From NCBI GenBank assembly GCA_017459425.1, contig JAFUCZ010000030.1:83651-147650 (forward strand): a stretch of 64,000 bases of DNA, in the 5' to 3' direction. The stretch is from Bacilli bacterium. GTDB taxonomy: Bacteria > Bacillota_I > Bacilli_A > RF39 > UBA660. A program made the translations under genes and the position numbers. Of this stretch, positions 27,037 to 54,854 are shown one piece after another; the first letter of the stretch is position 1; the number at the start of each line of letters is the position of its first letter. Below the pieces are notes generated by a model. That model saw nothing but the letters and a program-made list of their open reading frames with translations, did not search any database and had not been told where the DNA came from.

Positions 27037-27065
27037 GTTCGTAGAACTATATCACTTCTACGAAC
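27037..27065. repeat. lox-like site 1A: GTTCGTAGAA-CTATATCAC-TTCTACGAAC flanked by A5/T5
   Basis: Perfect 10-bp inverted arms flank a 9-bp asymmetric centre. The site also has bidirectional terminator geometry. Confidence 0.8.
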
Positions 27066-27224
27066 TTTTTAATTTGTTTATGATAAGTCTATTATATTAT
27101 ATATTGCCCTTATTTTCAATATTTTGGTAATGTTTTTTTTAAAAACTATTGACATATTTTGGTAATGTTTTTTTTAAAAACTTGTTCAGTAATTTACAAT
27201 ATTATGTCGGAAGGAGGGAGATTT

Positions 27225-28157: not shown

Positions 28158-28178
28158 AAGTGATATAGTTCTACGAAC
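28150..28178. repeat. lox-like site 1B: GTTCGTAGAA-GTGATATAG-TTCTACGAAC (exact inverse of 1A)
   Basis: The central 9 nt is the reverse complement of the 1A centre. Confidence 0.8.
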
Positions 28179-28230: not shown

Positions 28231-28317
28231 ATGACAAATCAAGAATTGATAGAACTTATTTTAAAAATGGATAAGATTAAATATGAGCTTAAAGATTTAG
28301 AATTGAGGTTGAAATAG
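28231..28317 (+). CDS. small ORF (28 aa, MTNQELIELILKMDKIKYELKDLELRLK) possibly translationally coupled to the next gene
   Basis: An RBS AGGAGGAAG is present. The stop lies 1 nt before the next ATG. Confidence 0.25.
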   Translation: MTNQELIELILKMDKIKYELKDLELRLK

Positions 28318-28318
28318 T

Positions 28319-30799
28319 ATGAAAAAAATAACAGCGGCAAATATTAAAGAGTATATCCAAGAAATTGCAGATGCAATTCAAGAATTTAATCGTCAAATTG
28401 ATGCAATTAATAATCAAGAAGAAGAATATCGTGAAACAGGTGAATTTAAAATTGTAGACCTTGCTACTCATGAACGAGGAATATCTGGTGGTATGGGGAT
28501 AAGCAATGTTAACAATTATATAGATTCATGGAAAGAATATATTGAAAATGGTGGGAAAAATGTTGAAGAGGCAAAACAGAAGATAGAATATTTAACAAAA
28601 GTTCTAGAACTTATAGAAAATGATTCAAAATATGACTTAAAAAAAGAGAAGGTAGATAAAACCTTACAACAATTTAAAGAAAAGAAAGAGAAACTTGAAG
28701 AATTAATTAGTCAGTTAAGAAAAGAAATAAAATCATGTAATACAATTCTTAAAGATATTGCATTTACAAGTATTTTAAATAATCCAGAAGCAATGGGTAA
28801 AGTTATTGATGGACTTATTGCAAACGCAAACGAAGACTTGAAACAGAAAGAAGAAAAGAAAAAACAATTACTAGAAGAATTGGAACAAAAAGAAAAAGAT
28901 GAAAAATTATTATCTGAACTTTCATGTGGTGTTAGAAGTGAATATAACTTTACACCTTTTGGTAGGTTCAATCCTAAGAGCGTGGAATCATTTAGAGAAT
29001 ATTTATCAGAAAATAATTTATATGGACAATTAGAAAGCTTTATCAAAAGATTTGCAAATGATGATACATTAGAAGTTTTAAATTATTTAAAGAATGAACC
29101 AAATGGGGCATGGGAAAAATACTACAATGCATATCCAAATGAATTTAGAACATTGGCAAAGTATACATATGTTTTGATGCAAGCAAAAGCATCTTTGAAA
29201 ATACCACAAGATTATATTGATAAAACATGTGAGAACCAAGATGTTGAATTTGATGATAAAATATATTTTGGTGATCTTAACTTCATATCAAAAAAGGATT
29301 TGATAAAATATATTAAGAATATCACAAGTGAAAGTTTAGGTAAAGATAATATAGACAACTTTAATAGATTATGTAGTTTAAGTTATAATGATTTTTGCAA
29401 ATTAGTATCGAAAATAAATTTGGATACTGTAACATATGAAGAATGTTTACTATTATTTGAAATGGTAAAACCTATGGAGAGAACTTATCTTTTAGATTCA
29501 GAAGGAGAAAATTTTAGTAAAGCATTACAAAGTTACTATAAGCAAGAAAAAAGAAAAGAATATCCACATGATACAGGTCGCATTATTATCTCAAGAGATT
29601 TAGAGAAAATAAGAGAAAGAAGACCTTACATTAAGTCAGAATTATCACGAGTAGAAGATAGTATAGTTCAATCTCAATCATATATAAAATCATTAGAAAC
29701 TGGGGATAAAAAACATTTAATTGAATTGAATTTAAATGGATTTCAAATTAGAGAAGGTGTAATTCCAGTACCTGACAGTGTGGATTGGGCAATAGTTGGA
29801 ATAAATGGTGTTCATAATCGTATAGGTGTAAATCAAGAAGAATTTGATTCTATTAATAGTAAAATTAACGACTTCGAAAACTCTGAATATGGAAAATTAT
29901 TTGTTAAATATGTAAACGAGAATGGAGTCGACTTTGAAGAACCTTATGCACAATTATCAAAAATCGTAATAACATTTAATTCCAATATAAAACATGCTGA
30001 AGGTTTACTACGTTATGAAGAACGAACTGAAAAAGAAAAGTTTGAAAGTCAGATAAAAGAATTAGAAATAGAACTTGAAGAATTAAAAAATAGTGCAGAA
30101 GATAGAAAATTCACAAAGAAAAATGGCGAACTCGTTAAAGGAAAAGTTGGTAGATTTTTATTTAAAATCTTTAACAGAAAACAATACAAGAATAATATTG
30201 AACAAATAACAAATTCTGAAAAGAAAATCAACGAAGAAAAAGAAAGAATAATCGCTGAATCTCAAAGTCCAAGTAGTGTTGTTACTGCAAAGAAAGAACT
30301 TGAAAGATTGATACATGAAAGAGAAAATGCTATAACAAAAATTCTTAATTGCGATTTAGCTACTGCTGAAAAAATAGTTGAAGAACTTGAAAGTATTTCT
30401 CCTTATTCATTAACAGAATTCATGAGTGGTGATACACCTTTACAGAATAGTGAGAATGCTGAAAAAAATAGAGAATATCTTAATCTGTTGCAACGTAGGA
30501 AACAAATGAGTAGTGAAATTAATAGAGATAAATTAAATTACTTTGATTTAATAAAGAAATTGCTGAATGATTCAACACTACCTATTCATATTAGAAAAGA
30601 ATTAGAATTAATTATTTCTAGTGATGAAGTTCGTAGTATTGATGTTTCAAGGGAATCTGTAGCTTATGCCAGAGAATTAGAAAAACATTCATATGATCCA
30701 ACTCTAACGGATTCTATAAGAACAGGAATTATTGATCCAACTATGGATAGTGATGAAGCTGTAACAATATTGAACGAAACACAAGGAAAATCAAAATAA
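28319..30799 (+). CDS. large (826 aa) coiled-coil rich protein, function unknown
   Basis: Long K/E-rich heptad regions. No enzymatic motif recognised. Confidence 0.4.
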   Translation: MKKITAANIKEYIQEIADAIQEFNRQIDAINNQEEEYRETGEFKIVDLATHERGISGGMGISNVNNYIDSWKEYIENGGKNVEEAKQKIEYLTKVLELIENDSKYDLKKEKVDKTLQQFKEKKEKLEELISQLRKEIKSCNTILKDIAFTSILNNPEAMGKVIDGLIANANEDLKQKEEKKKQLLEELEQKEKDEKLLSELSCGVRSEYNFTPFGRFNPKSVESFREYLSENNLYGQLESFIKRFANDDTLEVLNYLKNEPNGAWEKYYNAYPNEFRTLAKYTYVLMQAKASLKIPQDYIDKTCENQDVEFDDKIYFGDLNFISKKDLIKYIKNITSESLGKDNIDNFNRLCSLSYNDFCKLVSKINLDTVTYEECLLLFEMVKPMERTYLLDSEGENFSKALQSYYKQEKRKEYPHDTGRIIISRDLEKIRERRPYIKSELSRVEDSIVQSQSYIKSLETGDKKHLIELNLNGFQIREGVIPVPDSVDWAIVGINGVHNRIGVNQEEFDSINSKINDFENSEYGKLFVKYVNENGVDFEEPYAQLSKIVITFNSNIKHAEGLLRYEERTEKEKFESQIKELEIELEELKNSAEDRKFTKKNGELVKGKVGRFLFKIFNRKQYKNNIEQITNSEKKINEEKERIIAESQSPSSVVTAKKELERLIHERENAITKILNCDLATAEKIVEELESISPYSLTEFMSGDTPLQNSENAEKNREYLNLLQRRKQMSSEINRDKLNYFDLIKKLLNDSTLPIHIRKELELIISSDEVRSIDVSRESVAYARELEKHSYDPTLTDSIRTGIIDPTMDSDEAVTILNETQGKSK

Positions 30800-30822
30800 A
30801 TAATGATATTTAACAAAAAAAG

Positions 30823-30851
30823 GTTCGTAGAACTAACATAGTTCCACGAAC
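30823..30851. repeat. lox-like site 2A: GTTCGTAGAA-CTAACATAG-TTCCACGAAC + T7
   Basis: Same architecture. A-tract and T-tract flanks. Confidence 0.8.
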
Positions 30852-31018
30852 TTTTTTTCATGTCTAAATTGTACTATAAAATAAAGAAATATGCAATATT
30901 ATGGCAGTCTTTTTGTATATGCAATTGTAAACTTTTACATAATTTTTTCAAATTGTATTTTTTTATTATATTTAATTGGTTTATAATAAGAAAAATTGTA
31001 TAATTAAAAAAATAATAG
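30852..31018. promoter_or_regulatory. invertible-module candidate 2 (167 bp, non-coding, homologous to modules 3-5)
   Basis: Bounded by inverse sites 2A and 2B. Shares the ...TAAATTGTACTATAA...TATGCAATAT...TTGTAAACTTTTACAT... blocks. Confidence 0.55.
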
Positions 31019-31047
31019 GTTCGTGGAACTATGTTAGTTCTACGAAT
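31019..31047. repeat. lox-like site 2B: GTTCGTGGAA-CTATGTTAG-TTCTACGAAT (inverse of 2A including the arm variant)
   Basis: The centre is the reverse complement of 2A. The T-to-C arm variant is mirrored. Confidence 0.8.
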
Positions 31048-31088
31048 ATACTTGAAAGATTACTTCAACAATATTGTAGGAGGTATAT

Positions 31089-31541
31089 ATGGGATTGTTT
31101 GATATGCTTAATAAAAATGATATAAAAAAAAAATATTTATCGATTGGTGATAAAAGACTTGATGAAGAAGATATGCTAGAAAGAAAAGATTTATATGAAA
31201 TATTTAAGAAATATCAAGGATATGAAAAGACAATTGATTTATCAGATAACAAAGAAGTAAATAAAAAGATTTTAAGTTTGATGTCAGAACTATTCAATTT
31301 AAAAATTGTTTGCAAAAATTATAATGAATATGAAGATTTATATAATAATTTTAATGAAATAACAATTAATAAAATTAATACTTTAAATATCCTTGAATGT
31401 ATGGCTTTAATAACTTATATTCAAAGACAAGATTATTGGTCTGGTGGATATTCTTCGCCATATTTAAATAATACTAAAAATGGATTTATTCCACAAATAA
31501 TAAATAGAATAATTAGTTTATATGAAAGTAGAGGAAAATAG
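31089..31541 (+). CDS. MGLFDM-N-terminus family small protein
   Basis: Starts with MGLFDMLNK. RBS AGGAGG. Confidence 0.45.
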   Translation: MGLFDMLNKNDIKKKYLSIGDKRLDEEDMLERKDLYEIFKKYQGYEKTIDLSDNKEVNKKILSLMSELFNLKIVCKNYNEYEDLYNNFNEITINKINTLNILECMALITYIQRQDYWSGGYSSPYLNNTKNGFIPQIINRIISLYESRGK

Positions 31542-31543
31542 TT

Positions 31544-32332
31544 ATGAATAAAGATAAAGATAGTGTTATAAAATCAGGCAAAGTTCTTTTTACAATGGGT
31601 ATAATTTTTTCTGTATTATTATTTTTATTACTAATAGTAGCAATTAATGATTCGATTGGAGCAGTAATTTTAGTTATATTATTATATGTTATCATATCAC
31701 CATTATTAATTCTGGGAGTATGTATGAAAAAAAATCCTGAAAAATATATAAAAACATCTATTTCGTATATCTATGGTGCTGATAGTACAATATATTTAAA
31801 TAAAGGATATACTTATGATATTGCTTGCAATTTATATTGTAAAAGAACAGGTAAAACAAATGAAGAATTAACTGAGTCTGATGAAGATGAAATATGGCAT
31901 TGTTCGTATGATGATTTTACTTATTTAATGGCTTGGATTATTGAAAATGGTTATTATCAATATTCTTCTCAACACTATGGTGAGGATGGAGAAAAAGGTT
32001 GGATGAAAACTATTGATAAAATTAAGAATAGAACTTATGAGGCTACTGATTTCTTTCTTTTAACAGATGGAGTTTTATTCAAGGATGAAATATCAGATCA
32101 AATTGTTGATTTTATACAGGAATATTCAAATAGTTCACTATGTAATGATGGGCAATTTTATCTTAAAGAGGAAAATGTAATAGGTGGTTTGGAAGTAGAT
32201 GTACAAGACTTTGCACGAAAACAACTTAATTCTGATATTTATGGCTTTAAATTCAAATGGGATGATTATGATAAATTCAAAGTTTATATAGATACTGCGT
32301 ATAAGAAATATTTAGATAAGGTAGGAAAATAG
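31544..32332 (+). CDS. membrane-anchored hypothetical protein
   Basis: An N-terminal TM helix pair. Confidence 0.4.
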   Translation: MNKDKDSVIKSGKVLFTMGIIFSVLLFLLLIVAINDSIGAVILVILLYVIISPLLILGVCMKKNPEKYIKTSISYIYGADSTIYLNKGYTYDIACNLYCKRTGKTNEELTESDEDEIWHCSYDDFTYLMAWIIENGYYQYSSQHYGEDGEKGWMKTIDKIKNRTYEATDFFLLTDGVLFKDEISDQIVDFIQEYSNSSLCNDGQFYLKEENVIGGLEVDVQDFARKQLNSDIYGFKFKWDDYDKFKVYIDTAYKKYLDKVGK

Positions 32333-32334
32333 TT

Positions 32335-32682
32335 ATGGGATTGTTTGATATGTTTAAAAGTAAAGGAATATATTCATCATTGACTAATGAACAAAAGCAA
32401 GAATTGATTAAGAACGGAGAATTAAAACCATTATATTTAATTGGATTAAGATTTGGTGGCTCTGATAAAATTGATAATATGGTTTATGCTCCATCACAAG
32501 CAGTTGAACAAAAAAATAAGATAGATGATGAATTAGAAAACTATATGAAACAAGGTAGAACTGTTAAAGGATATATGTGCATTCCTTCATATAAAGGAAA
32601 ATGTAGTATTCCATCTAAATTAAAAATACAAGCATTTATTGATGGAACAGAACAATTTGTTAGAAATATAGATATTTGGTAG
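32335..32682 (+). CDS. MGLFDM-N-terminus family small protein
   Basis: Starts with MGLFDMFKSK. Confidence 0.45.
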   Translation: MGLFDMFKSKGIYSSLTNEQKQELIKNGELKPLYLIGLRFGGSDKIDNMVYAPSQAVEQKNKIDDELENYMKQGRTVKGYMCIPSYKGKCSIPSKLKIQAFIDGTEQFVRNIDIW

Positions 32683-32691
32683 AGGTGCTTT

Positions 32692-33366
32692 ATGAAAAAA
32701 ATAGGAAAAATTATTTTTTGGATTATATGGATAGGAATACTTTTATTTTTACATATAGGAATGGCAGCAGGTTCTGAGTATAATGATTCCTCAACAAAAA
32801 CTGTTGGAATAGTTGGAATTGTTATCTGGTGGGTATTGACTATTGGAATAACTGTAATAGTTTTGAAAATTCAAGATAAAAAAGAAGAAAAAAAGAAAAT
32901 CGAATATAAAGAAAAAAATATTGAAACAATTGAGTATGAAGATGACAGATATGGAAAAGTTAGTTTTAAACACAATCTAGAGAAACATATTTTATCAGCT
33001 GATATAAAAAATGTTAATTTTGCTGGAAAAAATTTAGAGGCTAGTATTTTAAATATTGACGATAAGACTGATTTAAAAACTATCTTTGATAATTTAAAGA
33101 AATATAGTGATAATTCAAAATCAATTAAAGAAAGAATTTATCCTGAACTTGCTGGCACTTTAAAAAAAGTAGATAATTATGATAAAGATGGAAATTTATT
33201 TGAACCAAGTGAACAATTTTTAAGAGATAATTTTGAATTTAGTACAATAGTGATTCAAGATTCGAAGACTATAAGCTTGTGGGGAAGTTGGGATTCTCCT
33301 TATGAACAAGATTATTCAATTAATTACAATTCTAGCGATGATACAATTGAAGTTGAAAGTTTATAA
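32692..33366 (+). CDS. membrane protein, hypothetical
   Basis: Two N-terminal TM helices. Confidence 0.4.
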   Translation: MKKIGKIIFWIIWIGILLFLHIGMAAGSEYNDSSTKTVGIVGIVIWWVLTIGITVIVLKIQDKKEEKKKIEYKEKNIETIEYEDDRYGKVSFKHNLEKHILSADIKNVNFAGKNLEASILNIDDKTDLKTIFDNLKKYSDNSKSIKERIYPELAGTLKKVDNYDKDGNLFEPSEQFLRDNFEFSTIVIQDSKTISLWGSWDSPYEQDYSINYNSSDDTIEVESL

Positions 33367-33384
33367 TGTGAATGAGGTTAAAAA

Positions 33385-33840
33385 ATGGGATTATTTGATA
33401 TGTTTAAGAAAAATAAAACAAATAATAATATAAAGCCACAAATTTATATATCACAAGTTGAATATGATGGTATACCAATTGAAATAGAGTTTAACATAGA
33501 TGAGAGTAAAGAACATCTATCAGAAGATTATGCCGTATTACAAAACGAAGGTATAGATAAAATAATAAAAGACCGTTTTATACCATGGTTTAAGACTGAT
33601 AAATTTAAAGATAGAGATGATAATTTAATTTATGAAGGTTTAAAGATTTATGATATAGTATACTGCTATGGTATGATTGATGCTCGATATTCACCTACAC
33701 AACAACAAGAAATGGCTGGGCAATTTACATTTTTCTTTGAAAGTGGAAATGAATATACATCAGATATGTTGGAATCAACAGCAATGGAAATTTATGTATT
33801 AAATGGAAAAATAGTTAAAGTAGATGGATACGAAGTTTAG
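33385..33840 (+). CDS. MGLFDM-N-terminus family small protein
   Basis: Starts with MGLFDMFKKNK. Confidence 0.45.
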   Translation: MGLFDMFKKNKTNNNIKPQIYISQVEYDGIPIEIEFNIDESKEHLSEDYAVLQNEGIDKIIKDRFIPWFKTDKFKDRDDNLIYEGLKIYDIVYCYGMIDARYSPTQQQEMAGQFTFFFESGNEYTSDMLESTAMEIYVLNGKIVKVDGYEV

Positions 33841-33848
33841 GAGGAAAT

Positions 33849-34445
33849 ATGGGATTATTTAGTATGTTTAAGAAAGAAAGTAATGAAAAACCAGATATAT
33901 CAGAAATAGCATATGATTATGATGGGTATGATATAGCATTTGAAAGTGGAAAAACAGAACCAAAATTATATTCTGAAATAAATAATATTGTTACTAATAA
34001 TAATTTTGATATTAATAATATAAGTGAGTATAAGAATTTAAATATTAATTCTGATTATGACACATTTCTAACATTTTATGATTCTTGGTTAGAAGAACTA
34101 AAAAATAATAATTATGTTATACATTTGGATAATTATACTAATATAACTGACTTTGCCAACAAAATAAATCAATTATTAGATAGAATAAATTCCAAAAAAA
34201 AGATAGATGTTGATTTAATTACAAATGAATATAAGGAAGAATTGAAAAAATATTCTTTTATGGGTAATGATATAGAAGAAAATTTTAATTACGATGTACT
34301 TGAGGCAAATATAGTAGCACAGGAATTAAGAAAAATTGGATACGAGTTAATAAATTTCTTTATTGGATATGATAATAATGATAAAACTATTATTAAAATT
34401 GATGATATAGAAAAACTAAAAGAAATAGAAACTAAGATTAAATAA
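33849..34445 (+). CDS. MGLF(S)M-N-terminus family protein
   Basis: Starts with MGLFSMFKKE. Confidence 0.45.
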   Translation: MGLFSMFKKESNEKPDISEIAYDYDGYDIAFESGKTEPKLYSEINNIVTNNNFDINNISEYKNLNINSDYDTFLTFYDSWLEELKNNNYVIHLDNYTNITDFANKINQLLDRINSKKKIDVDLITNEYKEELKKYSFMGNDIEENFNYDVLEANIVAQELRKIGYELINFFIGYDNNDKTIIKIDDIEKLKEIETKIK

Positions 34446-34461
34446 TGGAGGAGTTGTTAAT

Positions 34462-34905
34462 ATGACAAATAAAACTAATTTAGGATTAATTATTGAAAAT
34501 TTAGATTTAGATGCTAATTTACAAGAATTTATAGAAAATGTAGTTGAGGAGAATTTTAGAGAATTAGATCAACCACTTTATGATGAACAAGGAAATTTTA
34601 TATATAATAAAGCACTTGTAGAATTCTTAAAGTCTGATGAAAAAATCAAATCATTATCTAATGATGAATTTAAATTAGTACTTGATATGTTGGTAAAAGA
34701 TATACTTCATAGAATAGAAGCGAAGGGAAATTCTCATATAAGAGCTACTGAAGGTGCTTATGATGAAGAAAATAGAAGTTATTATGGTAGTTCTGAAAGT
34801 GCATATTGGCATTTATTAGAACAATATTTAGACGATTTTAATTATAATAAAAGTATTTCAGATTTCTATGCTGAATATTTAGAAGAAAATGAAAAAAAGA
34901 AGTAA
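34462..34905 (+). CDS. hypothetical acidic protein
   Basis: An ORF with an RBS GGAGGAG. Confidence 0.35.
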   Translation: MTNKTNLGLIIENLDLDANLQEFIENVVEENFRELDQPLYDEQGNFIYNKALVEFLKSDEKIKSLSNDEFKLVLDMLVKDILHRIEAKGNSHIRATEGAYDEENRSYYGSSESAYWHLLEQYLDDFNYNKSISDFYAEYLEENEKKK

Positions 34906-34928
34906 AAGAATAAAGGTGGAGATTATAG

Positions 34929-35645
34929 ATGTTAAACTATAAAAAAATAATATGTAGTATAGCTATATGCTTTATGTGTTTTATTGGTATGAACTCAGTA
35001 ATGGCAGCCGAAGTGACTACTGAGAAACTTGCTGAAATTTTAAGAGAAAGTGATTTGTTGGATGCATTATATTTTGAAGATTCAAAAATTACATTTGAAA
35101 CAACGGACACTACACTTAAAATACATGAAATAAATGGATTTTATGATGATGAAATTGATGATGTTGAAACTGATACGATTTATACATTGATTGATAATAT
35201 CTTAACTTATGAATATCTTGATATGGAAAATCCATCATACGCACAAATTGTTCCTGATGAATTATGGACAGATGAGGTAATAAAAGCAATTTATACTCTA
35301 AAAGGGCATGAAAATGAAACAATAAATTATGAAAATCCAGAATTTATACTTTATGAGAAATTTGAAACTGCTGGGCAACCGCAAGGAACAAAAAGATTAA
35401 AAATAGATTTGAGTAAAATTGAAGACTTAAATCCAGAAACCACATCTGTTGATGATGATAATCAATCTTCTAATGTAGTTGAATCAACAGAAAATAGTGT
35501 TTCGAATAATGTTGATAACAAGAAAACATCTAGTACAACAGAAAATCCTAAAACAGGGGTTTATGGTGGAAGTATATTATTAGTTGTAAGTGCAATTGTA
35601 GGCTATATAGTTATCAGAAGGAAAAATAAATTCAAAAATATATAA
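34929..35645 (+). CDS. secreted cell-wall-anchored protein (signal peptide; C-terminal NPKTG sorting motif + TM + basic tail)
   Basis: An N-terminal signal, then ...TENPKTGVYGGSILLVVSAIVGYIVIRRKNK. Confidence 0.5.
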   Translation: MLNYKKIICSIAICFMCFIGMNSVMAAEVTTEKLAEILRESDLLDALYFEDSKITFETTDTTLKIHEINGFYDDEIDDVETDTIYTLIDNILTYEYLDMENPSYAQIVPDELWTDEVIKAIYTLKGHENETINYENPEFILYEKFETAGQPQGTKRLKIDLSKIEDLNPETTSVDDDNQSSNVVESTENSVSNNVDNKKTSSTTENPKTGVYGGSILLVVSAIVGYIVIRRKNKFKNI

Positions 35646-35653
35646 TAAAAAAA

Positions 35654-35682
35654 GTTCGTAGAAGTACCATACTTCCACGAAC
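35654..35682. repeat. lox-like site 3A: GTTCGTAGAA-GTACCATAC-TTCCACGAAC + T5
   Basis: Same architecture. Confidence 0.8.
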
Positions 35683-35872
35683 TTTTTACTTACACCTAAA
35701 TTATATTATAATTCGTGGATTTATGCAATATAATAATAGTTTTTTGATATATAATAATGTCAAATTTTACATTTTTTTAGAAAAAATTATTGTTTTTATA
35801 TATAAACTTTATAAATTGTCATAATACTGGATTTTATAAGTATTAACACCAATTTAATTGTAGAAAATAAAG
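35683..35872. promoter_or_regulatory. invertible-module candidate 3 (190 bp)
   Basis: Contains TAAATTATATTATAA, TATGCAATAT and the palindromic ATGTCAAATTTTACAT. Confidence 0.55.
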
Positions 35873-35901
35873 GTTCGTAGAAGTATGGTACTTCTACGAA
35901 C
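35873..35901. repeat. lox-like site 3B: GTTCGTAGAA-GTATGGTAC-TTCTACGAAC (inverse of 3A)
   Basis: The centre is the reverse complement of 3A. Confidence 0.8.
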
Positions 35902-35947
35902 AATAGATAATATTATAAGTTATCGGTATTGTATGAGGAGGAAATTT

Positions 35948-36244
35948 ATGAACAATAATCAAGATTATCAAACAACACAAATGTCAAATTTAGGTGTTAA
36001 TGCTTCTGGTAACCCATTACAAATGAGAGGTTTAATGAATGTTTTAAATTCTAGTTATCACGAAGGTATAACACTAGAAGAACTACAAGTAGCAGTTGGA
36101 ACAGCAATTCAGCAACAATTACAACAATCACTACAAGGTATGGATCAAGCATCAGCACAAACAGTTATGTCATTTTTACAAGGAGTAGATTATACTTTAA
36201 CACAAGATTATAATAAGACTGTTCGTTCAGATAGAACATTATAA
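35948..36244 (+). CDS. hypothetical Q-rich small protein
   Basis: ATG after the RBS GAGGAGG. The upstream track extension runs through site 3B and is unlikely. Confidence 0.4.
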   Translation: MNNNQDYQTTQMSNLGVNASGNPLQMRGLMNVLNSSYHEGITLEELQVAVGTAIQQQLQQSLQGMDQASAQTVMSFLQGVDYTLTQDYNKTVRSDRTL

Positions 36245-36260
36245 GAATTAGGAGTTATTT

Positions 36261-36626
36261 ATGATTTACAATATTTATTATAATACTTTAAATAAAGAAT
36301 TAAAGAAGGCAATTTATTCAAAATCAATTTCGATTGAAGATTTAAAAAAAGTGTATGAAAACTTAAAAATAAAAAATAACAAAAAAAGGAAAACTATTAA
36401 TTTAGTTATGATAATAGTAATTGTTATATTTGGTATTTTGGGTATTCCTACATTTATAAATTCAAACAATCCTGAATTTACTAAATTTATGTTATTATTA
36501 TTAATACCTTTAATCGTAGTTATTTATGGAATTGTTTATTTTACACAAGTAGGATTAATAAAAATCCAATTTAATAATGCAATAAAGAAGAATTATCCTG
36601 AATTAGTGAATGAATTAAAATTGTAA
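36261..36626 (+). CDS. small membrane protein
   Basis: Two TM helices. Confidence 0.4.
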   Translation: MIYNIYYNTLNKELKKAIYSKSISIEDLKKVYENLKIKNNKKRKTINLVMIIVIVIFGILGIPTFINSNNPEFTKFMLLLLIPLIVVIYGIVYFTQVGLIKIQFNNAIKKNYPELVNELKL

Positions 36627-36639
36627 ATAGGAGGTTTAT

Positions 36640-36942
36640 ATGGGAAATAATGAAAAATTAGACCAAATGGTGCATGATGAAATGTATAAGAATTTGAATA
36701 GAACAGAAGAATTACTTAGTCACTTATATGAAATGATAAAAAATGATCCAGAAAATAAAGAATTAACTAGAATTTTTGAAGGAGTTCTTTATATTGCACA
36801 AGGTCAAGTAAGAACTAATGCAATTGTTAGTGAAACATATTTTGGTAAGGGAATTAAGGAATATTCAATGAAGATTGCAAAAAAAAGAGAAGAAAACTTG
36901 AAAAGTTTATCTGAACATGCCAAAAAAGGAAGAACAAAGTAA
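36640..36942 (+). CDS. hypothetical protein
   Basis: RBS AGGAGG. Confidence 0.35.
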   Translation: MGNNEKLDQMVHDEMYKNLNRTEELLSHLYEMIKNDPENKELTRIFEGVLYIAQGQVRTNAIVSETYFGKGIKEYSMKIAKKREENLKSLSEHAKKGRTK

Positions 36943-36957
36943 GTTGGAGGAAATAAT

Positions 36958-37506
36958 ATGCAAGAAGAATTAAAAATGTTAGAACAAAAAAAGACAGAGG
37001 CTTTAAGTAAGTCATTGACACTTCATTCACAAGCAAGTGATAAAGAAGCTAAGATGGAAAATTTTATTCAGAAATGGTTAAATGATGAATCAGAATTAAA
37101 TAATGAAAGTATGCAACAATTACTTGATTCTGTTAATGAACAAGTTGCTGAATTAAAAAGACAAGCAGAAGAGTCATGGAAAGAATATAAAAAATTAGAT
37201 AGTGAAATATCATTAAAACAAAATGCAGTTTATAGTGTAAGAACAAATTTAGGAATGAGTCCTGATGAAATTGTTATAACAGGAGGAGTACTATCTTCTA
37301 ATGCAAGTGAATCACATTTAATTGGAAGAAGTAAAACACCAGAAGAATTAGAAATAGATAGGTTAAATGCTCTTGCAATGATTAGAGAAAAAGTTGCTAA
37401 AAAAGAAATTACATTAGCTCATGCATCTAAGTTAAAAAATGATGTTAATATTGCTTATGGATATGCACCACAACAACAAGAAAATCAAAATGGTATGTCT
37501 AAATAA
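36958..37506 (+). CDS. coiled-coil hypothetical protein
   Basis: RBS GGAGG. Heptad-rich. Confidence 0.35.
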   Translation: MQEELKMLEQKKTEALSKSLTLHSQASDKEAKMENFIQKWLNDESELNNESMQQLLDSVNEQVAELKRQAEESWKEYKKLDSEISLKQNAVYSVRTNLGMSPDEIVITGGVLSSNASESHLIGRSKTPEELEIDRLNALAMIREKVAKKEITLAHASKLKNDVNIAYGYAPQQQENQNGMSK

Positions 37507-37620
37507 ATTATGGATAGTAAAAAAATACTATCTTTTTAATTTCTTTATCAAAAATTAAAAAAATATAGTATAATAAGTAAGTAAATTAGTGTTTTTTAAT
37601 TTTTGAGGGAGAAAAGTGTT

Positions 37621-38538
37621 ATGAGAAAAATTATAACAAGTTATATTAATCCTGATATGGATGGTATAGCTTTAATGTATGCTTATTGTGAGTATTTAAG
37701 AAAAAAAGGTGAAGATGCCTATTATTATTTTGAAGGAACATACAAAAAAGAAGTTGGAATTGTTTTGGATACATTTAATATATCATTAAATCCAATAGAT
37801 AAAGTATTAGATGATGATAAGATAATTTTAGTTGATACAAATTATATTCAAGAAATTCCTAATACAATAACTGAGAATAAGATTGTAGAAGTAATAGATC
37901 ATCACAAAAGAGAACAATGGATAGATGAATATAATGTAAAAGCACAAATTGAGCCTCTCGGTTCAGCTTCAACAATAGTTGCTGAAAGATTTAAAAATAG
38001 TAATTTAGAGATTTCAAAAGAATCAGCAATTTTATTGTATTATGGTATTATATCAAATACAATGAACTTAAAAATCAAATTAACAAATCAAAGAGATATT
38101 GATATGGCAAATTGGTTAAAAAGTTTAGTACCCGAAATCACAGACAGTATTACTAATGAGATTTTTGTAAAAAAATCTGAAATTGGTAACAATTTAAGGG
38201 AAGAAATGGAAGTAGAATTTAAAGATCAATTTATGACTATATCATGGTCTATGGGACAATTAGAAGTTGCAAATGTTGAAGACTTTTTAGAAAAATATGA
38301 AGATAGTATTAGAAATGTACTAGAAACTGTTAGTAAAGAAAAAGAAGTTGAATATATGTCTGTTAATTGTATGGATATAATTAATGGTTATAGTATTATT
38401 GTCGCATTAAATGATAAAACAGCAAATTTAATTTCAAAATCAATTGGAGTGAACTTTATTGAATTGAAAGCAAAGATTAATGAACTTATAAGTAGAAAAG
38501 AAATTGTGAAAGTAATCAGAAATATATATAGTAAATAA
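37621..38538 (+). CDS. DHH-family phosphoesterase (family II inorganic pyrophosphatase-like)
   Basis: An N-terminal NPDMDG motif, a DHH motif VIDHHK and a GSASTIV motif are present. Confidence 0.6.
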   Translation: MRKIITSYINPDMDGIALMYAYCEYLRKKGEDAYYYFEGTYKKEVGIVLDTFNISLNPIDKVLDDDKIILVDTNYIQEIPNTITENKIVEVIDHHKREQWIDEYNVKAQIEPLGSASTIVAERFKNSNLEISKESAILLYYGIISNTMNLKIKLTNQRDIDMANWLKSLVPEITDSITNEIFVKKSEIGNNLREEMEVEFKDQFMTISWSMGQLEVANVEDFLEKYEDSIRNVLETVSKEKEVEYMSVNCMDIINGYSIIVALNDKTANLISKSIGVNFIELKAKINELISRKEIVKVIRNIYSK

Positions 38539-38558
38539 TTATGATTTAGGAGGTTTTT

Positions 38559-39119
38559 ATGATATATATAACAAGACACGGACAAACAAATTGGAATGTA
38601 CAAAAGAAAGTAATGGGTAGATGTGATGAACCATTAAACGAAACGGGATTAAGTCAAGCAGAAGAAACAAGAAATAACTTAATGAATACAGATATTGATT
38701 TGATTATTTGTTCACCATTAAAAAGAGCAAGACAAACAGCAGAGATAATTAATAGAGATAGAAATATTCCTATAATATATGATGAAAGAATTATCGAAAG
38801 AGATTTCGGTGAATTTGAAGGAATGGAAACAAAGAATTTTGATTTCCATGGTTATTGGAATTATTATAAGAATATGCAATTTGAGAGTGCTGAAAATATT
38901 CAAGTATTCTTTAAAAGAGTATATGATTTTTTAGAAGATATTACTGAAAAATATAAAGATAAAAATGTATTATTGGTTGCGCATGGTGGAATTAGTATCC
39001 CAGTAGCATGTTTCTTTAATGGAAATATACCAGAAGAATCACTCGTTGATGCAGGATTAGTTTTAGGTAATTGTCAAGTTGCATCATATACAGTGAATAA
39101 TAAAAAAATAAACAAGTAA
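38559..39119 (+). CDS. histidine phosphatase (phosphoglycerate-mutase-like) family protein
   Basis: An N-terminal RHGQTNWN catalytic motif is present. AHGG lies near the C-terminus. Confidence 0.7.
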   Translation: MIYITRHGQTNWNVQKKVMGRCDEPLNETGLSQAEETRNNLMNTDIDLIICSPLKRARQTAEIINRDRNIPIIYDERIIERDFGEFEGMETKNFDFHGYWNYYKNMQFESAENIQVFFKRVYDFLEDITEKYKDKNVLLVAHGGISIPVACFFNGNIPEESLVDAGLVLGNCQVASYTVNNKKINK

Positions 39120-39132
39120 TTACATAAAAAAG

Positions 39133-39161
39133 GTTCGTAGAACTCTATAACTTCTACGAAC
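39133..39161. repeat. lox-like site 4A: GTTCGTAGAA-CTCTATAAC-TTCTACGAAC + T6
   Basis: Same architecture. Confidence 0.8.
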
Positions 39162-39342
39162 TTTTTTCTATGATTAAATTATACTATAAGATATTGTTTT
39201 ATGCAATATAGCAAATAATTTTTTATTAATGAGTTATGTCAAATTTTACATTTTTTAATTCTAATTTGTATATATTTTTTTTAAATCATGGAATTCTATT
39301 GTGTACCAAATGAAAAAGGAATTTATAACATTATTAAAATAG
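39162..39342. promoter_or_regulatory. invertible-module candidate 4 (181 bp)
   Basis: Contains TAAATTATACTATAA, TATGCAATAT and ATGTCAAATTTTACAT. Confidence 0.55.
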
Positions 39343-39371
39343 GTTCGTAGAAGTTATAGAGTTCTACGAAT
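39343..39371. repeat. lox-like site 4B: GTTCGTAGAA-GTTATAGAG-TTCTACGAAT (inverse of 4A)
   Basis: The centre is the reverse complement of 4A. Confidence 0.8.
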
Positions 39372-39405
39372 AATGATTAGTAAATATATTTTGTGGAGGT
39401 AAAAT

Positions 39406-40431
39406 ATGAGAAAAAAGATATTTATTATGATTTTAGGAATAGTAATGTTTATTCCAATAGCACACGCAAAAGATGTTACAAAAGAGGAATTTGTTAGTAA
39501 TTTACAAAAATATGTAGAAGAATTTAATTCAGGTTCACCTACATATGAAGAATATCCATATGGTTCTGGAATTAGAAAAAATATGAAACAAATAATACTC
39601 ACAAATAATGATGAAGGAATTAATTTAAAAAATGGTGATTATGAAACTAATGTTGTATTCAATGAAACAGAGCAAACTGTAAATGGTATAGCAATGAATA
39701 TAGATAATATTAATGATAATTCTACTGAAGTTGAAAAAAAATTATATTATGAAAATATTATGTATAAATATATTCAATTACAAATGATAGGCTTATCTAT
39801 AATTGATTCGAAAGGAATAGATAAAGAATTAGGTTTATCGTCATATGATGTTTATGGTTTAAGAACAGGGACAGATACAATACTTAAAGATCTTTCATTT
39901 AACTTTAGTATTGATTTATCTAAAGTGGAGGTAATAGATGATGATGGATATGAATATCTTGTTCCAAAACTATCAATCGAAAAATTAAGTGATACTAAAT
40001 TAAGGATTTATTTTGATTTTGAAAGATATGATGAAGAACGATTTGATTGGGATAATATACCGATTGATTTATTAATTTTTGAAGATTCATCTTCTGTTTC
40101 AACAAATAGTATTACGCAAATTGAAGATGGATATGTTGATGTAAATATATTGCCAGATAAAGAATACATGTTTAAAGGTGTTGCATATCATCCAACATTA
40201 TTAGGTTATTTGCGATTAAGTGAGCCAGTATATTATAATGTACCATCGCAACAAGATAATCAAGCGACAGATAATAATAATGATAATAATGCTACTAATA
40301 CACAAAAAACTATATCTAATACAATAGACAATCCAAAAACAGGTGTGAAAAACTATATGACAGTTGGTATATTAGCAATCTTAATATTAGGAATAACATA
40401 CAAATTATATAAGAAAAAGGAAAGTATTTAA
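39406..40431 (+). CDS. secreted cell-wall-anchored protein (signal peptide; C-terminal NPKTG motif + TM + basic tail)
   Basis: An N-terminal signal, then ...IDNPKTGVKNYMTVGILAILILGITYKLYKKKESI. Confidence 0.5.
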   Translation: MRKKIFIMILGIVMFIPIAHAKDVTKEEFVSNLQKYVEEFNSGSPTYEEYPYGSGIRKNMKQIILTNNDEGINLKNGDYETNVVFNETEQTVNGIAMNIDNINDNSTEVEKKLYYENIMYKYIQLQMIGLSIIDSKGIDKELGLSSYDVYGLRTGTDTILKDLSFNFSIDLSKVEVIDDDGYEYLVPKLSIEKLSDTKLRIYFDFERYDEERFDWDNIPIDLLIFEDSSSVSTNSITQIEDGYVDVNILPDKEYMFKGVAYHPTLLGYLRLSEPVYYNVPSQQDNQATDNNNDNNATNTQKTISNTIDNPKTGVKNYMTVGILAILILGITYKLYKKKESI

Positions 40432-40442
40432 GGAGGACGATT

Positions 40443-41099
40443 ATGGGATTATTTGATATGTTTAAGAAAAAAAAGGTAGAACAAAAATCAAATCTACCTG
40501 AGAACAAATATTATAAAGGAAATGATATTTTTAAAGATGATGAGGTAAAGGGTAATGAAATATCAATTAGAATTATAAAGAGTATTGAAATACCTGGACA
40601 TTCTAATCTTTATGAATGTACTGTCCAATATGGAATACCAAGTGCACTGATTACAGATGCTTGGGAAAATGAAGATTTACGCTTTTTTGAAAAATTAATT
40701 ATGGAGTTTGATAAAAATGAAATGATTAATAATCCTGATTATGCTAAATTTGTTTTAACAAAATTATTAAGAAGGGAAAGAGTAAGAGAATTACACGACA
40801 TTGAATTTGGTTTAATCGATGGAAAGAAAAATGGAAATTATATTGGTTCTGTTTCAAAAAATAATGGTAATTTATCTATTACAATGAATGATGAAATAGG
40901 AACAGTAATAGAAACATTACCAGCAACAAAAAAGCTTCAAGAAAATTATAAAGAATATATATCTGAAAAAGAGCAAGTACAAAGAAATATAGACGAAAGC
41001 ACATCTACAAGCAGAAAAGAAAGAATTGAATATTTAAAACAAGAACTAGCAAATCTAGAAAAAAGAGAAGAAGAATATCAGAGTTCTAAAAATAAATAA
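40443..41099 (+). CDS. MGLFDM-N-terminus family protein
   Basis: Starts with MGLFDMFKKKK. Confidence 0.45.
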   Translation: MGLFDMFKKKKVEQKSNLPENKYYKGNDIFKDDEVKGNEISIRIIKSIEIPGHSNLYECTVQYGIPSALITDAWENEDLRFFEKLIMEFDKNEMINNPDYAKFVLTKLLRRERVRELHDIEFGLIDGKKNGNYIGSVSKNNGNLSITMNDEIGTVIETLPATKKLQENYKEYISEKEQVQRNIDESTSTSRKERIEYLKQELANLEKREEEYQSSKNK

Positions 41100-41161
41100 A
41101 TGATTTATGACTATTTAATATTGAAAATTAGATAGTCTTTTTTTATTTAGTAATAAAAAAG

Positions 41162-41190
41162 GTTCGTAGAACTACAATACTTCTACGAAC
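41162..41190. repeat. lox-like site 5A: GTTCGTAGAA-CTACAATAC-TTCTACGAAC
   Basis: Same architecture. Confidence 0.8.
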
Positions 41191-41370
41191 TTTCCCCATG
41201 TATAAATTATATTATATATTTCTTAAATATGCAATATGTTAATTAAATTTTTTGCTCATGAAAATGTAAAATTTTAACATTAATTTTTTTAATTACTAAT
41301 ATGTAATATGAAAAACTGTATTTTATTATTTTGCAATAGTAAAACATATTTTAACTTAATAATAGTTAGG
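41191..41370. promoter_or_regulatory. invertible-module candidate 5 (180 bp)
   Basis: Contains TAAATTATATTATATAT, ATATGCAATAT and ATGTAAAATTTTAACAT. Confidence 0.55.
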
Positions 41371-41399
41371 GTTCGTAGAAGTATTGTAGTTCTACGAAT
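41371..41399. repeat. lox-like site 5B: GTTCGTAGAA-GTATTGTAG-TTCTACGAAT (inverse of 5A)
   Basis: The centre is the reverse complement of 5A. Confidence 0.8.
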
Positions 41400-41433
41400 A
41401 ATGATGAATAAATATGTTTTTTGGAGTGAGATT

Positions 41434-42369
41434 ATGGGAATAGAGGAATTAAAGCAACTTCAATTACAAATTATAAGAAAGAATAAAACTTGTAATATTA
41501 TTGGGGTATTGTTATTTATATTTTCATCATTAGTTTTATGGGTTAATTATTTGTCTAAATATAATTTAATAGAGTTAACAATAATGGCGATATTAATTGA
41601 TTTAGTATTTTGTGTTATTATCATGGCATTTGTTAAAAGTAGAGTTAATGGTAAGAATATTCGAACTTTCTATAAAGAGTTTAAAAATGTTTTCGTGTTA
41701 AGTTCGCTTCAAAATGTTTTTGATAATATAACATACTATCCAACAAAAGGTTTTTCTAGAGAATTTGTAAAAAGTATCGGAATGATTGATACTGGTGATA
41801 GTTTTAATTCGAATGATTATATATCTGGTAAATATAAAAATATTTCATTTGAACAAGCAGATATGCATATTCAAGAAGAACATGAAGAAGAAGATAAAGA
41901 TGGAAAAAAAGAAACTGTCTGGGAAACAACTTTTTTAGGCAGATTAATGATATTTGATTTCAATAAGAGTTTTAAATCAGATATACAGGTAGCAAGTCGT
42001 TATTTCTCTGCTGAATCATTACCTTGGAGTAAAAGATTCTCAAGAGTAAGAATGGAAGACATTGAATTTAATAATTCATTTAATGTTTTTGCTGAGAGTG
42101 AACATGAAGCATTTTATATTTTAACCCCACAATTTATGGAAAAAATAAAAGATATAACAAAGAAATTAGGATGTAGTGTTATGTTTTGTTTTGTTAAAAA
42201 TAAATTGCACATTGCAGTGAATAATTATGAAGATTCTTTTGAACATAATGTTTTTAAAAAAATTGATGAGAAGAAAATTCAAGAAAACATAACAAGAGAT
42301 ATAAAATTGATTACAAACTTTGTCGATGAGTTAAGTTTAGATAATAACTTATTCAGAAGGGAGGTGTAG
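41434..42369 (+). CDS. membrane protein (DUF3137-like partner of LemA)
   Basis: ATG after the RBS GGAGTGAG, which follows site 5B. Two TM helices. Confidence 0.4.
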   Translation: MGIEELKQLQLQIIRKNKTCNIIGVLLFIFSSLVLWVNYLSKYNLIELTIMAILIDLVFCVIIMAFVKSRVNGKNIRTFYKEFKNVFVLSSLQNVFDNITYYPTKGFSREFVKSIGMIDTGDSFNSNDYISGKYKNISFEQADMHIQEEHEEEDKDGKKETVWETTFLGRLMIFDFNKSFKSDIQVASRYFSAESLPWSKRFSRVRMEDIEFNNSFNVFAESEHEAFYILTPQFMEKIKDITKKLGCSVMFCFVKNKLHIAVNNYEDSFEHNVFKKIDEKKIQENITRDIKLITNFVDELSLDNNLFRREV

Positions 42370-42370
42370 T

Positions 42371-42919
42371 ATGAGTCTTACAATTATTTTAATTATTGCA
42401 AGTATAATAATACTCATAATATTAGGCTGGTATATATCAGTTTCTAACAAACTAAATAGAGCAGTCGTTAAAATTGATGAATCATTATCAGGAATTGATG
42501 TGGCATTAACTAAAAGGTATGATGTTTTGACAAAAATGATTGATGTAGTTAAAGCATATACTAAACATGAAAAAGAAACACTATTTGAGGTAATTAAACT
42601 TCGCAAGGATATGTCTATACAAGAGAGAAACAATGTAAATCATGTGATGGATGAGAATTTTAGGAAAATTAATGTAGTCGCAGAAAATTATCCAGAATTA
42701 AAATCAAGTGAAAATTATAAAACATTGCAACAATCGATAGCAGATGTTGAAGAACATCTACAAGCATCAAGAAGACTTTATAATTCAAATGTCTCAATAT
42801 TTAATCAATTATTAGTTTCATTCCCAACAAGTAGTATTGCTAAAAGTAAAGGACTAACTAAAAAAGATTTCTTTGAGGCAGATGAGATAAAAAAAGAGGA
42901 TGTAAAAATCAATTTATAA
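42371..42919 (+). CDS. LemA-family protein
   Basis: An N-terminal TM followed by the LemA signature SNKLNRAVVKIDESLSGIDVALTKRYD. Confidence 0.7.
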   Translation: MSLTIILIIASIIILIILGWYISVSNKLNRAVVKIDESLSGIDVALTKRYDVLTKMIDVVKAYTKHEKETLFEVIKLRKDMSIQERNNVNHVMDENFRKINVVAENYPELKSSENYKTLQQSIADVEEHLQASRRLYNSNVSIFNQLLVSFPTSSIAKSKGLTKKDFFEADEIKKEDVKINL

Positions 42920-42935
42920 AATTTGAATAGAGGAG

Positions 42936-43454
42936 TTGAAAATAATGGAAAAAAAGAAAAAAATAACATTACCTATTAAGGTAACAATTGTAGGGTGTTT
43001 AATTGGTTTAGTTGTAGCTGGAATTGGTGTATTTAAACAACTTGATTCCAAAAGAATAAATGAAGAACGTCATGACGAAGCATTAAAACAATCTCAAGCA
43101 ATGGTTGATAAAGCAAATGAAAGATTGGCTGAAATTGAAAAGGAATATAATGAAATAAAGGCACAATATGATGCAAAAAACCAAGAATGTAATGCTGATA
43201 AAACAAATTTTAGTGATCCAAATTGGTTTAATAATCAATCAAATTGTAATCAAGAATTATTTGAATTAAACTCTAAAATGTCTGATTTAGAATTAGAGGA
43301 TTCTTCAATTAAAGCAAAAGATTATACAGTTTACTATGATGAAGTAAAACCTATGTCTTATTATATATTTTATATAATTGGTGGTTCTATAGCTGGTTTA
43401 GCAATATTAGGAGCATTCATTATATATTTAGTTAAAGGCGAAAAAAGATATTAA
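42936..43454 (+). CDS. bitopic membrane protein with coiled-coil
   Basis: N- and C-terminal TM helices. Confidence 0.35.
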   Translation: MKIMEKKKKITLPIKVTIVGCLIGLVVAGIGVFKQLDSKRINEERHDEALKQSQAMVDKANERLAEIEKEYNEIKAQYDAKNQECNADKTNFSDPNWFNNQSNCNQELFELNSKMSDLELEDSSIKAKDYTVYYDEVKPMSYYIFYIIGGSIAGLAILGAFIIYLVKGEKRY

Positions 43455-43592
43455 TAGTTATTTATAAATTTAACAAAAAACTTTGAACTTCTTTAATTAG
43501 AAGTTCTTTTTTTTGATTATTTTTATTATAACTTTAAAATTAAAAAAATAATCGAATGTATTTAATTTGTCCGTCATAAACAAAAGAACAAA

Positions 43593-54844: not shown

Positions 54845-54854
54845 GGTTGTTTAT

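Follow-up and report, generated by a model that had tools for sequence, protein, structure and literature searches.

A Probable Bank of DNA-Inversion Promoter Switches with Pair-Specific Lox-Like Sites in an AT-Rich Bacilli Bacterium

A Probable Array of Five Invertible Segments

The stretch of DNA analyzed here (64,000 nucleotides (nt); hereafter the window) comprises positions 83,651-147,650 on the forward strand of contig JAFUCZ010000030.1, which belongs to a Bacilli bacterium (UBA660; assembly GCA_017459425.1), and has a G+C content of 25%. The region 27037-43506 of this window is probably a bank of five DNA-inversion switches, in which promoter modules flip gene clusters ON or OFF; a probability of roughly 80% is given to this reading. 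At the level of sequence and comparison, it is built on inverted sites with pair-specific centers, the domains and catalytic motifs of a tyrosine recombinase, conserved hexamers, an asymmetry of the segment flanks, and the occurrence of both orientations. An earlier sequence-only reading had regarded the modules as probable invertible promoter cassettes that face away from the downstream genes and may now be OFF, and this proposal is supported by the minus-strand hexamers, the inverted sites, the adjacent recombinase, and flipped copies in other contigs. Throughout the text, segment 0 denotes the recombinase-bearing segment, and modules 1-4 denote the four non-coding modules.

Several other contigs were compared with the window. 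Those of the same strain include L001-3, L023-24, L025 (99.97-100% identical, from sample ERZ27256836), L026-32, and L038-40. Among the others, L020 is part of a 63-kilobase (kb) JGI metagenome contig from a relative, L021 (Ga0129307_1004018, positions 1-8585) is a close relative of the window locus with 93-97% DNA identity, L006 and L007 are two independent assemblies, and positions 119-12626 of L033 (ENA ERZ10544617 NODE_2843) were set against window positions 23196-28157.

Recombination Sites and Their Paired Centers

By searching the window for the arm sequence, ten sites of 29 nt each were identified, which form five inverted pairs. They have the form GTTCGTAGAA-N9-TTCTACGAAC, with one A/G arm variant in some copies. 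The two partners of each pair are reverse complements of each other at 28-29 of the 29 positions, the asymmetric 9-nt center included, and each pair has its own center, different from those of the other four. The centers match their own reverse complements at 2-6 of the nine positions and are thus asymmetric, which, together with the inverted arms, corresponds to a lox-type layout. Between non-partners, 1-5 differences are found over the inner seven positions of the center. The sequence-only reading had counted four invertible segments flanked by sites; the four modules are confirmed, but the site pairs number five, the extra one being located at 27037/28150.

This extra pair consists of site A0 (27037..27065; center CTATATCAC), which is the reverse complement of its partner at 29/29 positions, and site B0 (28150..28178; center GTGATATAG), which is not followed by a T-run. 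Module 1 lies between A1 (30823..30851; center CTAACATAG), where an A-run, a hairpin, and a T-run give a terminator-like structure in both directions, and B1 (31019..31047; center CTATGTTAG), whose cassette side lacks a T-run. The remaining modules are bounded by A2 (35654..35682; GTACCATAC) and B2 (35873..35901; GTATGGTAC), by A3 (39133..39161; CTCTATAAC) and B3 (39343..39371; GTTATAGAG), and by A4 (41162..41190; CTACAATAC) and B4 (41371..41399; GTATTGTAG), respectively.

The same rule holds in the relatives in which a homologous recombinase and sites were found: the partner centers are complementary, and they differ from those of the window. The centers of L006 (CTATACCAC / GTGGTATAG) show one change from segment 0 that is carried by both partners, and further pairs were found in L008 (GTAGCATA / TATGCTAC), L033 (TATGTATG / CATACATA), and L019 (CTGTATGAC / GTCATACAG), as well as in L015, which has four site pairs with matched centers. 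The center of the third module of L021 is one base off (CTCTATTAC). Strand exchange by tyrosine recombinases needs identical crossover regions. Partner-matched centers are the pattern that would be expected if the center is the crossover region and identity between partners is needed there. A scan of viral contigs for the site returned no matches, and nothing relevant on the site sequence or on 'lox-like' phase variation was found in the literature.

Module Layout and the Predicted Promoter

The four modules align end to end with a mean column identity of 75%. This alignment had been proposed as a check by the sequence-only reading, and the ordered blocks that it had described in four homologous modules were all recovered in their places. 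The interiors of modules 1-4 measure 167, 190, 181, and 180 base pairs (bp) between sites, and the modules span 196-219 bp from center to center. On the plus strand, the order is an A-run, the palindromic site, a T-run, the almost invariant block TAAATTRTAYTATAA, a variable stretch of approximately 15-17 nt, and TATGCAATAT, which is invariant in all four modules; after a further 30-35 nt or so come the palindromic box ATGT(C/A)AA(A/C)TTTTA(A)CAT with a T-run, a divergent AT-rich tail, the second palindromic site, a ribosome-binding site, and the start codon.

When read on the minus strand, the invariant blocks become TTGCAT and TA(T/C)AAT, with a spacer of exactly 17 variable nt in 4/4 modules, and they are taken as a predicted sigma-70-type promoter, TTGCAT-17-TA(T/C)AAT. 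By pattern match and alignment, this promoter is placed on the minus strand at 30868..30896 in module 1 (TTGCAT-17-TACAAT), and at 35700..35728 in module 2 and 39178..39206 in module 3 (TTGCAT-17-TATAAT in both). In module 4, the same TTGCAT-17-TATAAT was located by pattern match at 41206..41234 (minus strand); it is flipped in the same-strain contig L025, and a module with the same center is flipped in L020. In the 64-kb window, TTGCAT-N17-TAYAAT was matched four times compared with 0.22 expected, and no shuffle gave four; each match lies on the minus strand and at the identical module position.

The conservation extends to other contigs. Eight modules, taken from four contigs (the window with four, L019 with two, and L020 and L021 with one each), were aligned on the promoter strand. 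ATATTGCA and TATAnTAYAAT are nearly invariant in them, and variation in the 17-nt spacer is free; the left palindrome half (AATGTAAA) is kept as well, as is an A-run near -50. One of the L019 modules (2521-2769) has TTGCAA-16-TACAAT with a TG-extended -10.

Promoter prediction on both strands, another check proposed earlier, was uninformative as a generic scan: 128 hits were obtained in the window versus 139 expected from shuffles, and TTGCAT is missed because this hexamer matches 3/6 consensus positions. The conserved minus-strand pair was found by pattern instead. As a consensus scan is uninformative at 25% G+C, the promoter call rests on conservation, spacing, and position. The sequence-only reading was right in seeing a promoter-like pair of hexamers on the bottom strand, but the -35 is the TTGCAT of the TATGCAATAT block and not the TTGACAT of the palindrome. 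Its two example hexamers, TATAGTATAAT and TGCCATAAT, fit its module numbers only when the recombinase segment is counted as segment 1, and in module 1 TGCCATAAT is a non-conserved sequence with the palindrome on one side and the -35 block on the other.

The Recombinase and Segment 0

The fifth site pair surrounds a 1.1-kb segment with the only tyrosine recombinase gene of the window (27225..28157, plus strand). Its product of 310 amino acids (aa) contains the Pfam Phage_integrase domain (5e-29) and a SAM-like N-domain, and the catalytic motifs are intact (R145, H251-x-x-R254, H277, and Y287); no paralogue of it was found in the window. The best PDB matches are XerA, Tn916-type Int, and XerC/D, and no Cre chain is present among the PDB matches at E <= 1e-3, which does not place the protein in the Cre family. 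No Resolvase domain was detected by Pfam in the recombinase, which sets it apart from the serine-recombinase (Hin/Gin/Cin) class. None of the curated NCBIfam models was passed: the FimB/FimE models PRK09870/PRK09871 gave 23.9/18.9 bits against cut-offs of 221/222, and the integron integrase model TIGR02249 gave 51.7 bits against a cut-off of 265, so that the protein was assigned to neither group.

A total of 2770 metagenomic homologues were found at E < 1e-10. A tblastn search of plasmid and phage collections gave no match above 35% identity, and a scan of GTDB genomes gave just two remote matches (21-26% identity). Homologues with 55-84% identity sit within their own site pairs. It was also observed that many recombinase homologues are known solely from contigs of 1.0-1.25 kb, the size of the invertible segment, which fits assembly-graph breaks at inverted sites; these contigs of about 1.1 kb were not counted as evidence, because the approximately 33 nt shared by a site pair could break a short-k-mer graph with or without inversion.

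The end of the recombinase open reading frame (ORF; ..KKSS, TAG) lies inside the inner arm of its own site (window 28150-28157), and this overlap is kept in four homologous loci (L006 2708-2715, L008 8739-8746, L033 2619-2626, and L015 10929-10936). Because the stop codon is part of the site, it would move with the gene on inversion. Segment 0 also contains an outward promoter-like sequence, P0 (TTGAAA-17-TATAAT; 27091..27119, minus strand), which has 11/12 consensus matches and reads left through A0; both the recombinase gene and P0 are therefore inside the invertible segment. The stretch from P0 to the start of the recombinase gene contains two exact direct copies of the 27-nt sequence TATTTTGGTAATGTTTTTTTTAAAAAC, at 27120-27146 and 27156-27182 with a 36-nt period, which could be a candidate regulatory site for recombinase expression. 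To the right of the segment lies cassette 0 (28231..30799, plus strand), which encodes a 28-aa ORF and an 826-aa coiled-coil-rich protein; its L006 homologue is 82% identical and is located on the P0 side of a flipped segment.

Orientation in Related and Same-Strain Contigs

Both orientations were observed between genomes, in L020, L006/L007, and L015. L020 shares with module 4 the left outer flank and both centers (left, CTACAATAC; right, GTATTGTAG). Its module is inverted: TTGCAT-17-TATAAT is on the plus strand beside the right site and points toward an ORF that has a ribosome-binding site. In L006/L007, whose recombinase is 84% identical, segment 0 is turned around with respect to homologous outer flanks. 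Its P0 end adjoins the cassette 0 homologue (the small ORF and the 826-aa protein, 82%), so that P0 faces this homologue, and the recombinase 3' end adjoins the A-run flank. In L015 (recombinase 55% identical), one of three modules is inverted compared with its two siblings.

The L015 modules (926-1074, 3151-3309, and 5572-5719) constitute a second family of 120-130 bp, located between surface-protein genes, with degenerate arms and pair-specific centers. They carry a central dyad, TTAATCAATAAATTAT-N12-ATAATTTATTCATTAA, whose sequence is unrelated to the window palindrome, and no promoter could be identified in these modules.

Within the strain, L025 alone is suggestive of the second orientation. 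In this contig, the left flank of module 4 is joined, exactly at the site, to a fully inverted interior, and beyond the second site the contig goes on as its own left flank in reverse complement. The first junction is specific to the flipped state and the second to the present state, which would be as expected of a mixed population. The complementary ON junction of module 4 was looked for in contigs with the downstream gene, and all three shown are OFF.

Proposed ON/OFF Logic

As sequenced, every module promoter aims left, out via site A. The leftward exits of all five segments are followed by 7-8 T in 9 nt, compared with 2-4 T in 9 nt for the rightward exits, and the same flank asymmetry is seen in the related modules of L019 and L020. 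The hairpin of site A1 with its flanking A- and T-runs has folding energies of -19.3 and -20.5 kcal/mol on the two strands (z ~ -7). A GGAGG-type ribosome-binding site is present within 35-50 nt to the right of site B, and inspection of the stretches between site B and the ribosome-binding sites revealed no promoter-like site.

In the proposed OFF state, which is the state sequenced, a leftward transcript would meet the site A hairpin and a U-tract derived from the plus-strand A-run, leaving a stub of approximately 55-60 nt. After inversion, the promoter would be placed beside site B and point right, into the ribosome-binding site and the cassette genes (ON), and transcription is predicted to pass the site B hairpin because non-T sequence follows. 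As rightward transcripts of the preceding cassette would likewise meet a terminator-like structure at site A, the cassettes would be insulated from each other, and the sites would have a dual role as recombination targets and insulating terminators between cassettes. With regard to segment 0, P0 would now be dead-ended at A0 and would drive cassette 0 when flipped; at present, this cassette could be reached only by readthrough from the recombinase gene, since B0 is without a T-run.

The single recombinase (27225-28157) most likely serves all five switches. By analogy with other tyrosine recombinases, a site would recombine solely with its own partner, and each segment would then flip alone, with no deletion or large inversion between modules. 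A bolder version of this model can be put forward tentatively, at somewhat less than even odds. One Cre-like recombinase would read five mutually exclusive 9-nt 'addresses' in otherwise identical lox-like sites, giving a natural five-bit register of up to 32 states in which the sites act as bidirectional insulating terminators, the recombinase gene is itself one bit (its own expression context changing with the state), and a conserved operator near -72 provides further control of a non-stochastic kind. If true, such a five-address register would parallel in nature the logic engineered with spacer-variant lox sites.

The Palindromic Box inside the Modules

The palindromic box, with the consensus AATGTAAAATTT(T/G)ACAT, accompanies the promoter and is located at 30925..30940 in module 1 (TTGTAAACTTTTACAT), at 35757..35772 in module 2 and 39236..39251 in module 3 (ATGTCAAATTTTACAT in both), and at 41264..41280 in module 4 (ATGTAAAATTTTAACAT, with one base inserted). 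By itself, the palindrome pattern shows no enrichment over the window (5 matches versus 7.5 expected); its significance comes from a position that is fixed in each module and from conservation in related modules of other contigs, the position being kept in those of L019 and L021. Its center is 35.5-38.5 nt upstream of the -35 hexamer, which corresponds to approximately 70-74 nt upstream of the inferred start, and the segment midpoint is no more than 3.5-12 bp away.

The box is most likely a putative binding site for a dimeric DNA-binding protein. It may bind an activator or repressor that acts on the rather weak -35, or an architectural factor at the box may help the segment of about 200 bp to loop for synapsis. 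Both readings agree with these observations, and the regulator reading is weakly ranked above the architectural one; the central dyad of unrelated sequence in the L015-type modules is a point slightly in favor of the latter.

Alternative Explanations

It is conceivable, although improbable, that the modules are static intergenic repeats, that is, decayed miniatures of the recombinase element resembling miniature inverted-repeat transposable elements, which now serve as terminators or spacers and do not invert. Such an origin would agree with the one orientation of the same-strain assemblies and with the strong terminator-like hairpins of the sites, and the resemblance of the A-proximal module layout (site, T-run, -10, 17 nt, and -35) to the end of segment 0 fits duplication. 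Inert repeats are disfavored, however, because partner centers are perfectly complementary and yet pair-specific, in the window as well as in relatives; the promoter blocks are kept across diverged modules, flipped copies are present in L020, L006/L007, L015, and L025, and the recombinase ORF and its catalytic motifs are intact. Slightly less credible still is an integron-like array, in which the recombinase would capture, excise, or shuffle cassettes at the palindromic sites and promoter inversion would be incidental. A recombinase does head an array of cassettes parted by palindromic sites, and cassette content is mosaic among close relatives (L021 and L033), but the matching centers flank the non-coding modules in inverted orientation rather than the cassettes in direct orientation. 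Since the centers on either side of a cassette differ, its excision would need recombination between unlike centers. Furthermore, the score of the integron integrase model is far under its cut-off, and the array has no single-site junctions of the attC type.

A role of the palindromic box as a transcription signal in its own right is also very unlikely. It would then be a small terminator hairpin with a T-run or the -35 of a second promoter (TTGACA/TTTACA), which the sequence-only reading had supposed for TTGACAT. The bottom strand does contain TTGACA (modules 2 and 3) or TTTACA (modules 1 and 4), the scan of module 3 pairs the box with AATTAT at 16 nt (10/12 match), and a T-run follows the box on the plus strand. 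Nevertheless, no conserved -10 is found at 16-18 nt from the box, where most modules have an A-run, and the conserved TAYAAT is about 60 nt away; the role of -35 of a tandem promoter was thus rejected. A role as an RNA hairpin or terminator was also rejected, as the folding energies of the boxes (-0.8 to -1.7 kcal/mol) do not surpass those of shuffled sequence: out of 200 shuffles, 126-140 fold at least as well for three boxes, and 71 for module 1.

Several points weigh against the interpretation of the region as a bank of inversion switches. The basis is assembled sequence. TTGCAT agrees with TTGACA at just 3/6 positions, and promoter-like hexamers are as common in shuffled sequence of 25% G+C. 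The centers of modules 1 and 2, and those of modules 2 and 4, differ at one of the seven inner positions, which means that isolation between modules may be leaky. Modules 1-4 may be served by a recombinase encoded elsewhere in the genome, and the function assigned to the palindromic box is a guess. With respect to orientation, L025 is a chimeric fold-back contig end in which an assembly error at the 28-nt shared core is possible, and L001-3, L023-24, L026-32, and L038-40 are all in the window orientation where modules are covered. As all same-strain contigs except L025 show this orientation, OFF would be the majority state.

Putatively Switched Cassettes and Neighboring Genes

In addition to cassette 0, four cassettes on the plus strand follow the modules. 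Cassette 1 (31089..35645) consists of eight genes, mostly without family, the last of which encodes a signal peptide and an NPKTG-type anchor; four of its proteins begin with MGLF(D/S)M, three of these with MGLF(D/S)MFK. Cassette 2 (35948..39119) encodes four small proteins, a DHH phosphoesterase, and a histidine phosphatase, cassette 3 (39406..41099) a surface protein (signal peptide and NPKTG anchor) and an MGLFDMFKK protein, and cassette 4 (41434..43454) a DUF3137 protein, a LemA protein, and a membrane protein. A terminator-like hairpin follows cassette 4 at 43485-43506.

Two features are shared by some of these proteins. The N-terminus MGLF(D/S)M is common to five otherwise unrelated proteins (gene starts at 31089, 32335, 33385, 33849, and 40443) and continues with FK(K/S) in four of them and with LNK in the 31089 protein; the similarity is also visible as DNA repeats, and no family match was found for this N-terminus, which could be a targeting tag or a recombination hot spot. 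A signal peptide combined with a C-terminal NPKTG, a hydrophobic stretch, and a basic tail is encoded at 34929-35645 and 39406-40431, as well as at L019 2795-3817. As the NPKTG proteins have a sortase-type wall anchor, some switched cassettes encode surface proteins. The cassette proteins are not a set of paralogous surface lipoproteins: they are unrelated to each other, and just two have a signal peptide and an NPKTG-type anchor. Searches of the cassette proteins with PADLOC and NCBIfam gave only weak, below-threshold matches.

Upstream of the array, the XRE regulators at 23196-23869 had been suggested by the sequence-only reading as binders of the palindrome. A role of the palindrome as the operator of the XRE pair is unsupported, because the DNA around these genes contains no copy of it. 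L033 looks like the same chromosomal spot in a close relative: its XRE pair is 98-99% identical to that of the window, the next ORF 80%, and the recombinase 66%, and its cargo comprises an N_methyl/DUF6273 protein, a diversity-generating retroelement (bAvd and reverse transcriptase), and Wzy and glycosyltransferase genes. The XRE genes, being so well conserved beside a 66% identical recombinase and different cargo, thus seem to belong to a conserved flank and not to co-vary with the system, and the whole switch island appears to be exchangeable. From the XRE genes to the recombinase, the window has in addition a gene (24666-26366) for a 566-aa protein, whose N-terminal part is a DEDDh/RNase T-like exonuclease domain and whose C-terminal part has CxxC zinc-ribbon pairs; this gene is absent at the equivalent spot of L033.

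In L021, cassette 0 is different and shorter, the DHH and histidine-phosphatase genes are missing before the third module, and a stretch is replaced at window 33849-34448 (roughly the gene 33849-34445); this contig begins a few bases from site B0. Farther downstream, at 53471-57563, genes for an APH-type phosphotransferase, a double GNAT acetyltransferase, and an AadA-like nucleotidyltransferase are present, and these modifying enzymes may represent aminoglycoside-resistance genes.

Comparison with Known Systems and Significance

According to Horino et al. (2003), as summarized in PMC2268961, the mpl (P35) lipoprotein genes of Mycoplasma penetrans each have their own invertible promoter, with tyrosine recombinases nearby. 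This system is the closest analogue in layout, as adjacent units are independently turned ON or OFF by inversion of a short promoter segment; here, four promoter modules and segment 0 are found in one 16-kb array. Further likenesses are a tyrosine recombinase encoded beside the array, the recombinases being compared by class, and a very AT-rich genome. On the other hand, the units of the window are multi-gene cassettes of unrelated proteins, whereas those of mpl are paralogous lipoprotein genes. The mpl sites are reportedly short inverted repeats, unlike the full 29-nt lox-like palindromes with pair-specific centers described here, and the recombinase of the window is located inside a switch.

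Segment 0 resembles the Hin/hix H-segment of Salmonella in that it holds a recombinase gene together with an outward promoter that would serve the neighboring genes in one orientation. Hin is a serine recombinase that uses a Fis-bound enhancer. The enzyme of the window is, by contrast, a tyrosine recombinase, with four additional promoter-only target segments. As for Cre/loxP, inverted arms surround an asymmetric center that sets the orientation, and variant spacers give exclusive pairs. The sites of the window likewise have inverted arms around an asymmetric center, and their arm holds TTCGTA as in loxP; by analogy with spacer-variant lox sites, different centers would create mutually exclusive pairs. 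However, no sequence-level relation of the recombinase to Cre was found among the PDB matches at E <= 1e-3, and the center is 8-9 nt long with arms of approximately 10-12 nt.

In Clostridioides difficile, RecV-dependent switches control cwpV, flgB, cmrRST, and pdcB (PMC2784873, PMC5386303, PMC9286219). The two systems share a Gram-positive gut bacterium as host and one tyrosine recombinase with several segments of 150-200 bp, and, as in cwpV, terminator formation is part of the ON/OFF logic. Nevertheless, the RecV targets are scattered over the genome with recV outside them, whereas the switches of the window are arrayed, and their sites share an arm consensus, have coded centers, and act as terminators themselves. 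In addition, the mechanism here would be promoter orientation, unlike the terminator within the leader of cwpV.

Invertible promoters are well known from the polysaccharide loci of Bacteroides fragilis (Mpi) and from gut 'invertons' (PMC11892184, PMC11602134). The window resembles the Mpi system in having multiple invertible promoters, mostly OFF, in front of surface-related gene clusters in a gut bacterium, but the Mpi enzyme belongs to the serine recombinases and uses simple inverted repeats of shared sequence as its sites. It has also been reported that invertases near invertons are generally not in a regulatable position themselves (PMC11892184), which differs from the recombinase inside an invertible segment found here. 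Invertible promoters as such are not new; what would be new is the arrangement, in which promoter switches are arrayed and addressed by their centers, sites double as terminators, and the recombinase lies within one of the switches.

These findings would add to the catalogue of phase variation a recombinase family without a curated name but with thousands of metagenomic homologues, and inverton surveys have so far been dominated by Bacteroides; the general picture of phase variation is unchanged. Sites that combine the functions of recombination target, partner-specific address, and terminator would be compact and portable, and may be of interest to those who build recombinase logic. If the model holds, a gut bacterium of an uncultured, very AT-rich lineage would switch four or five gene clusters independently with one enzyme, and some of the clusters that it switches would encode wall-anchored surface proteins.

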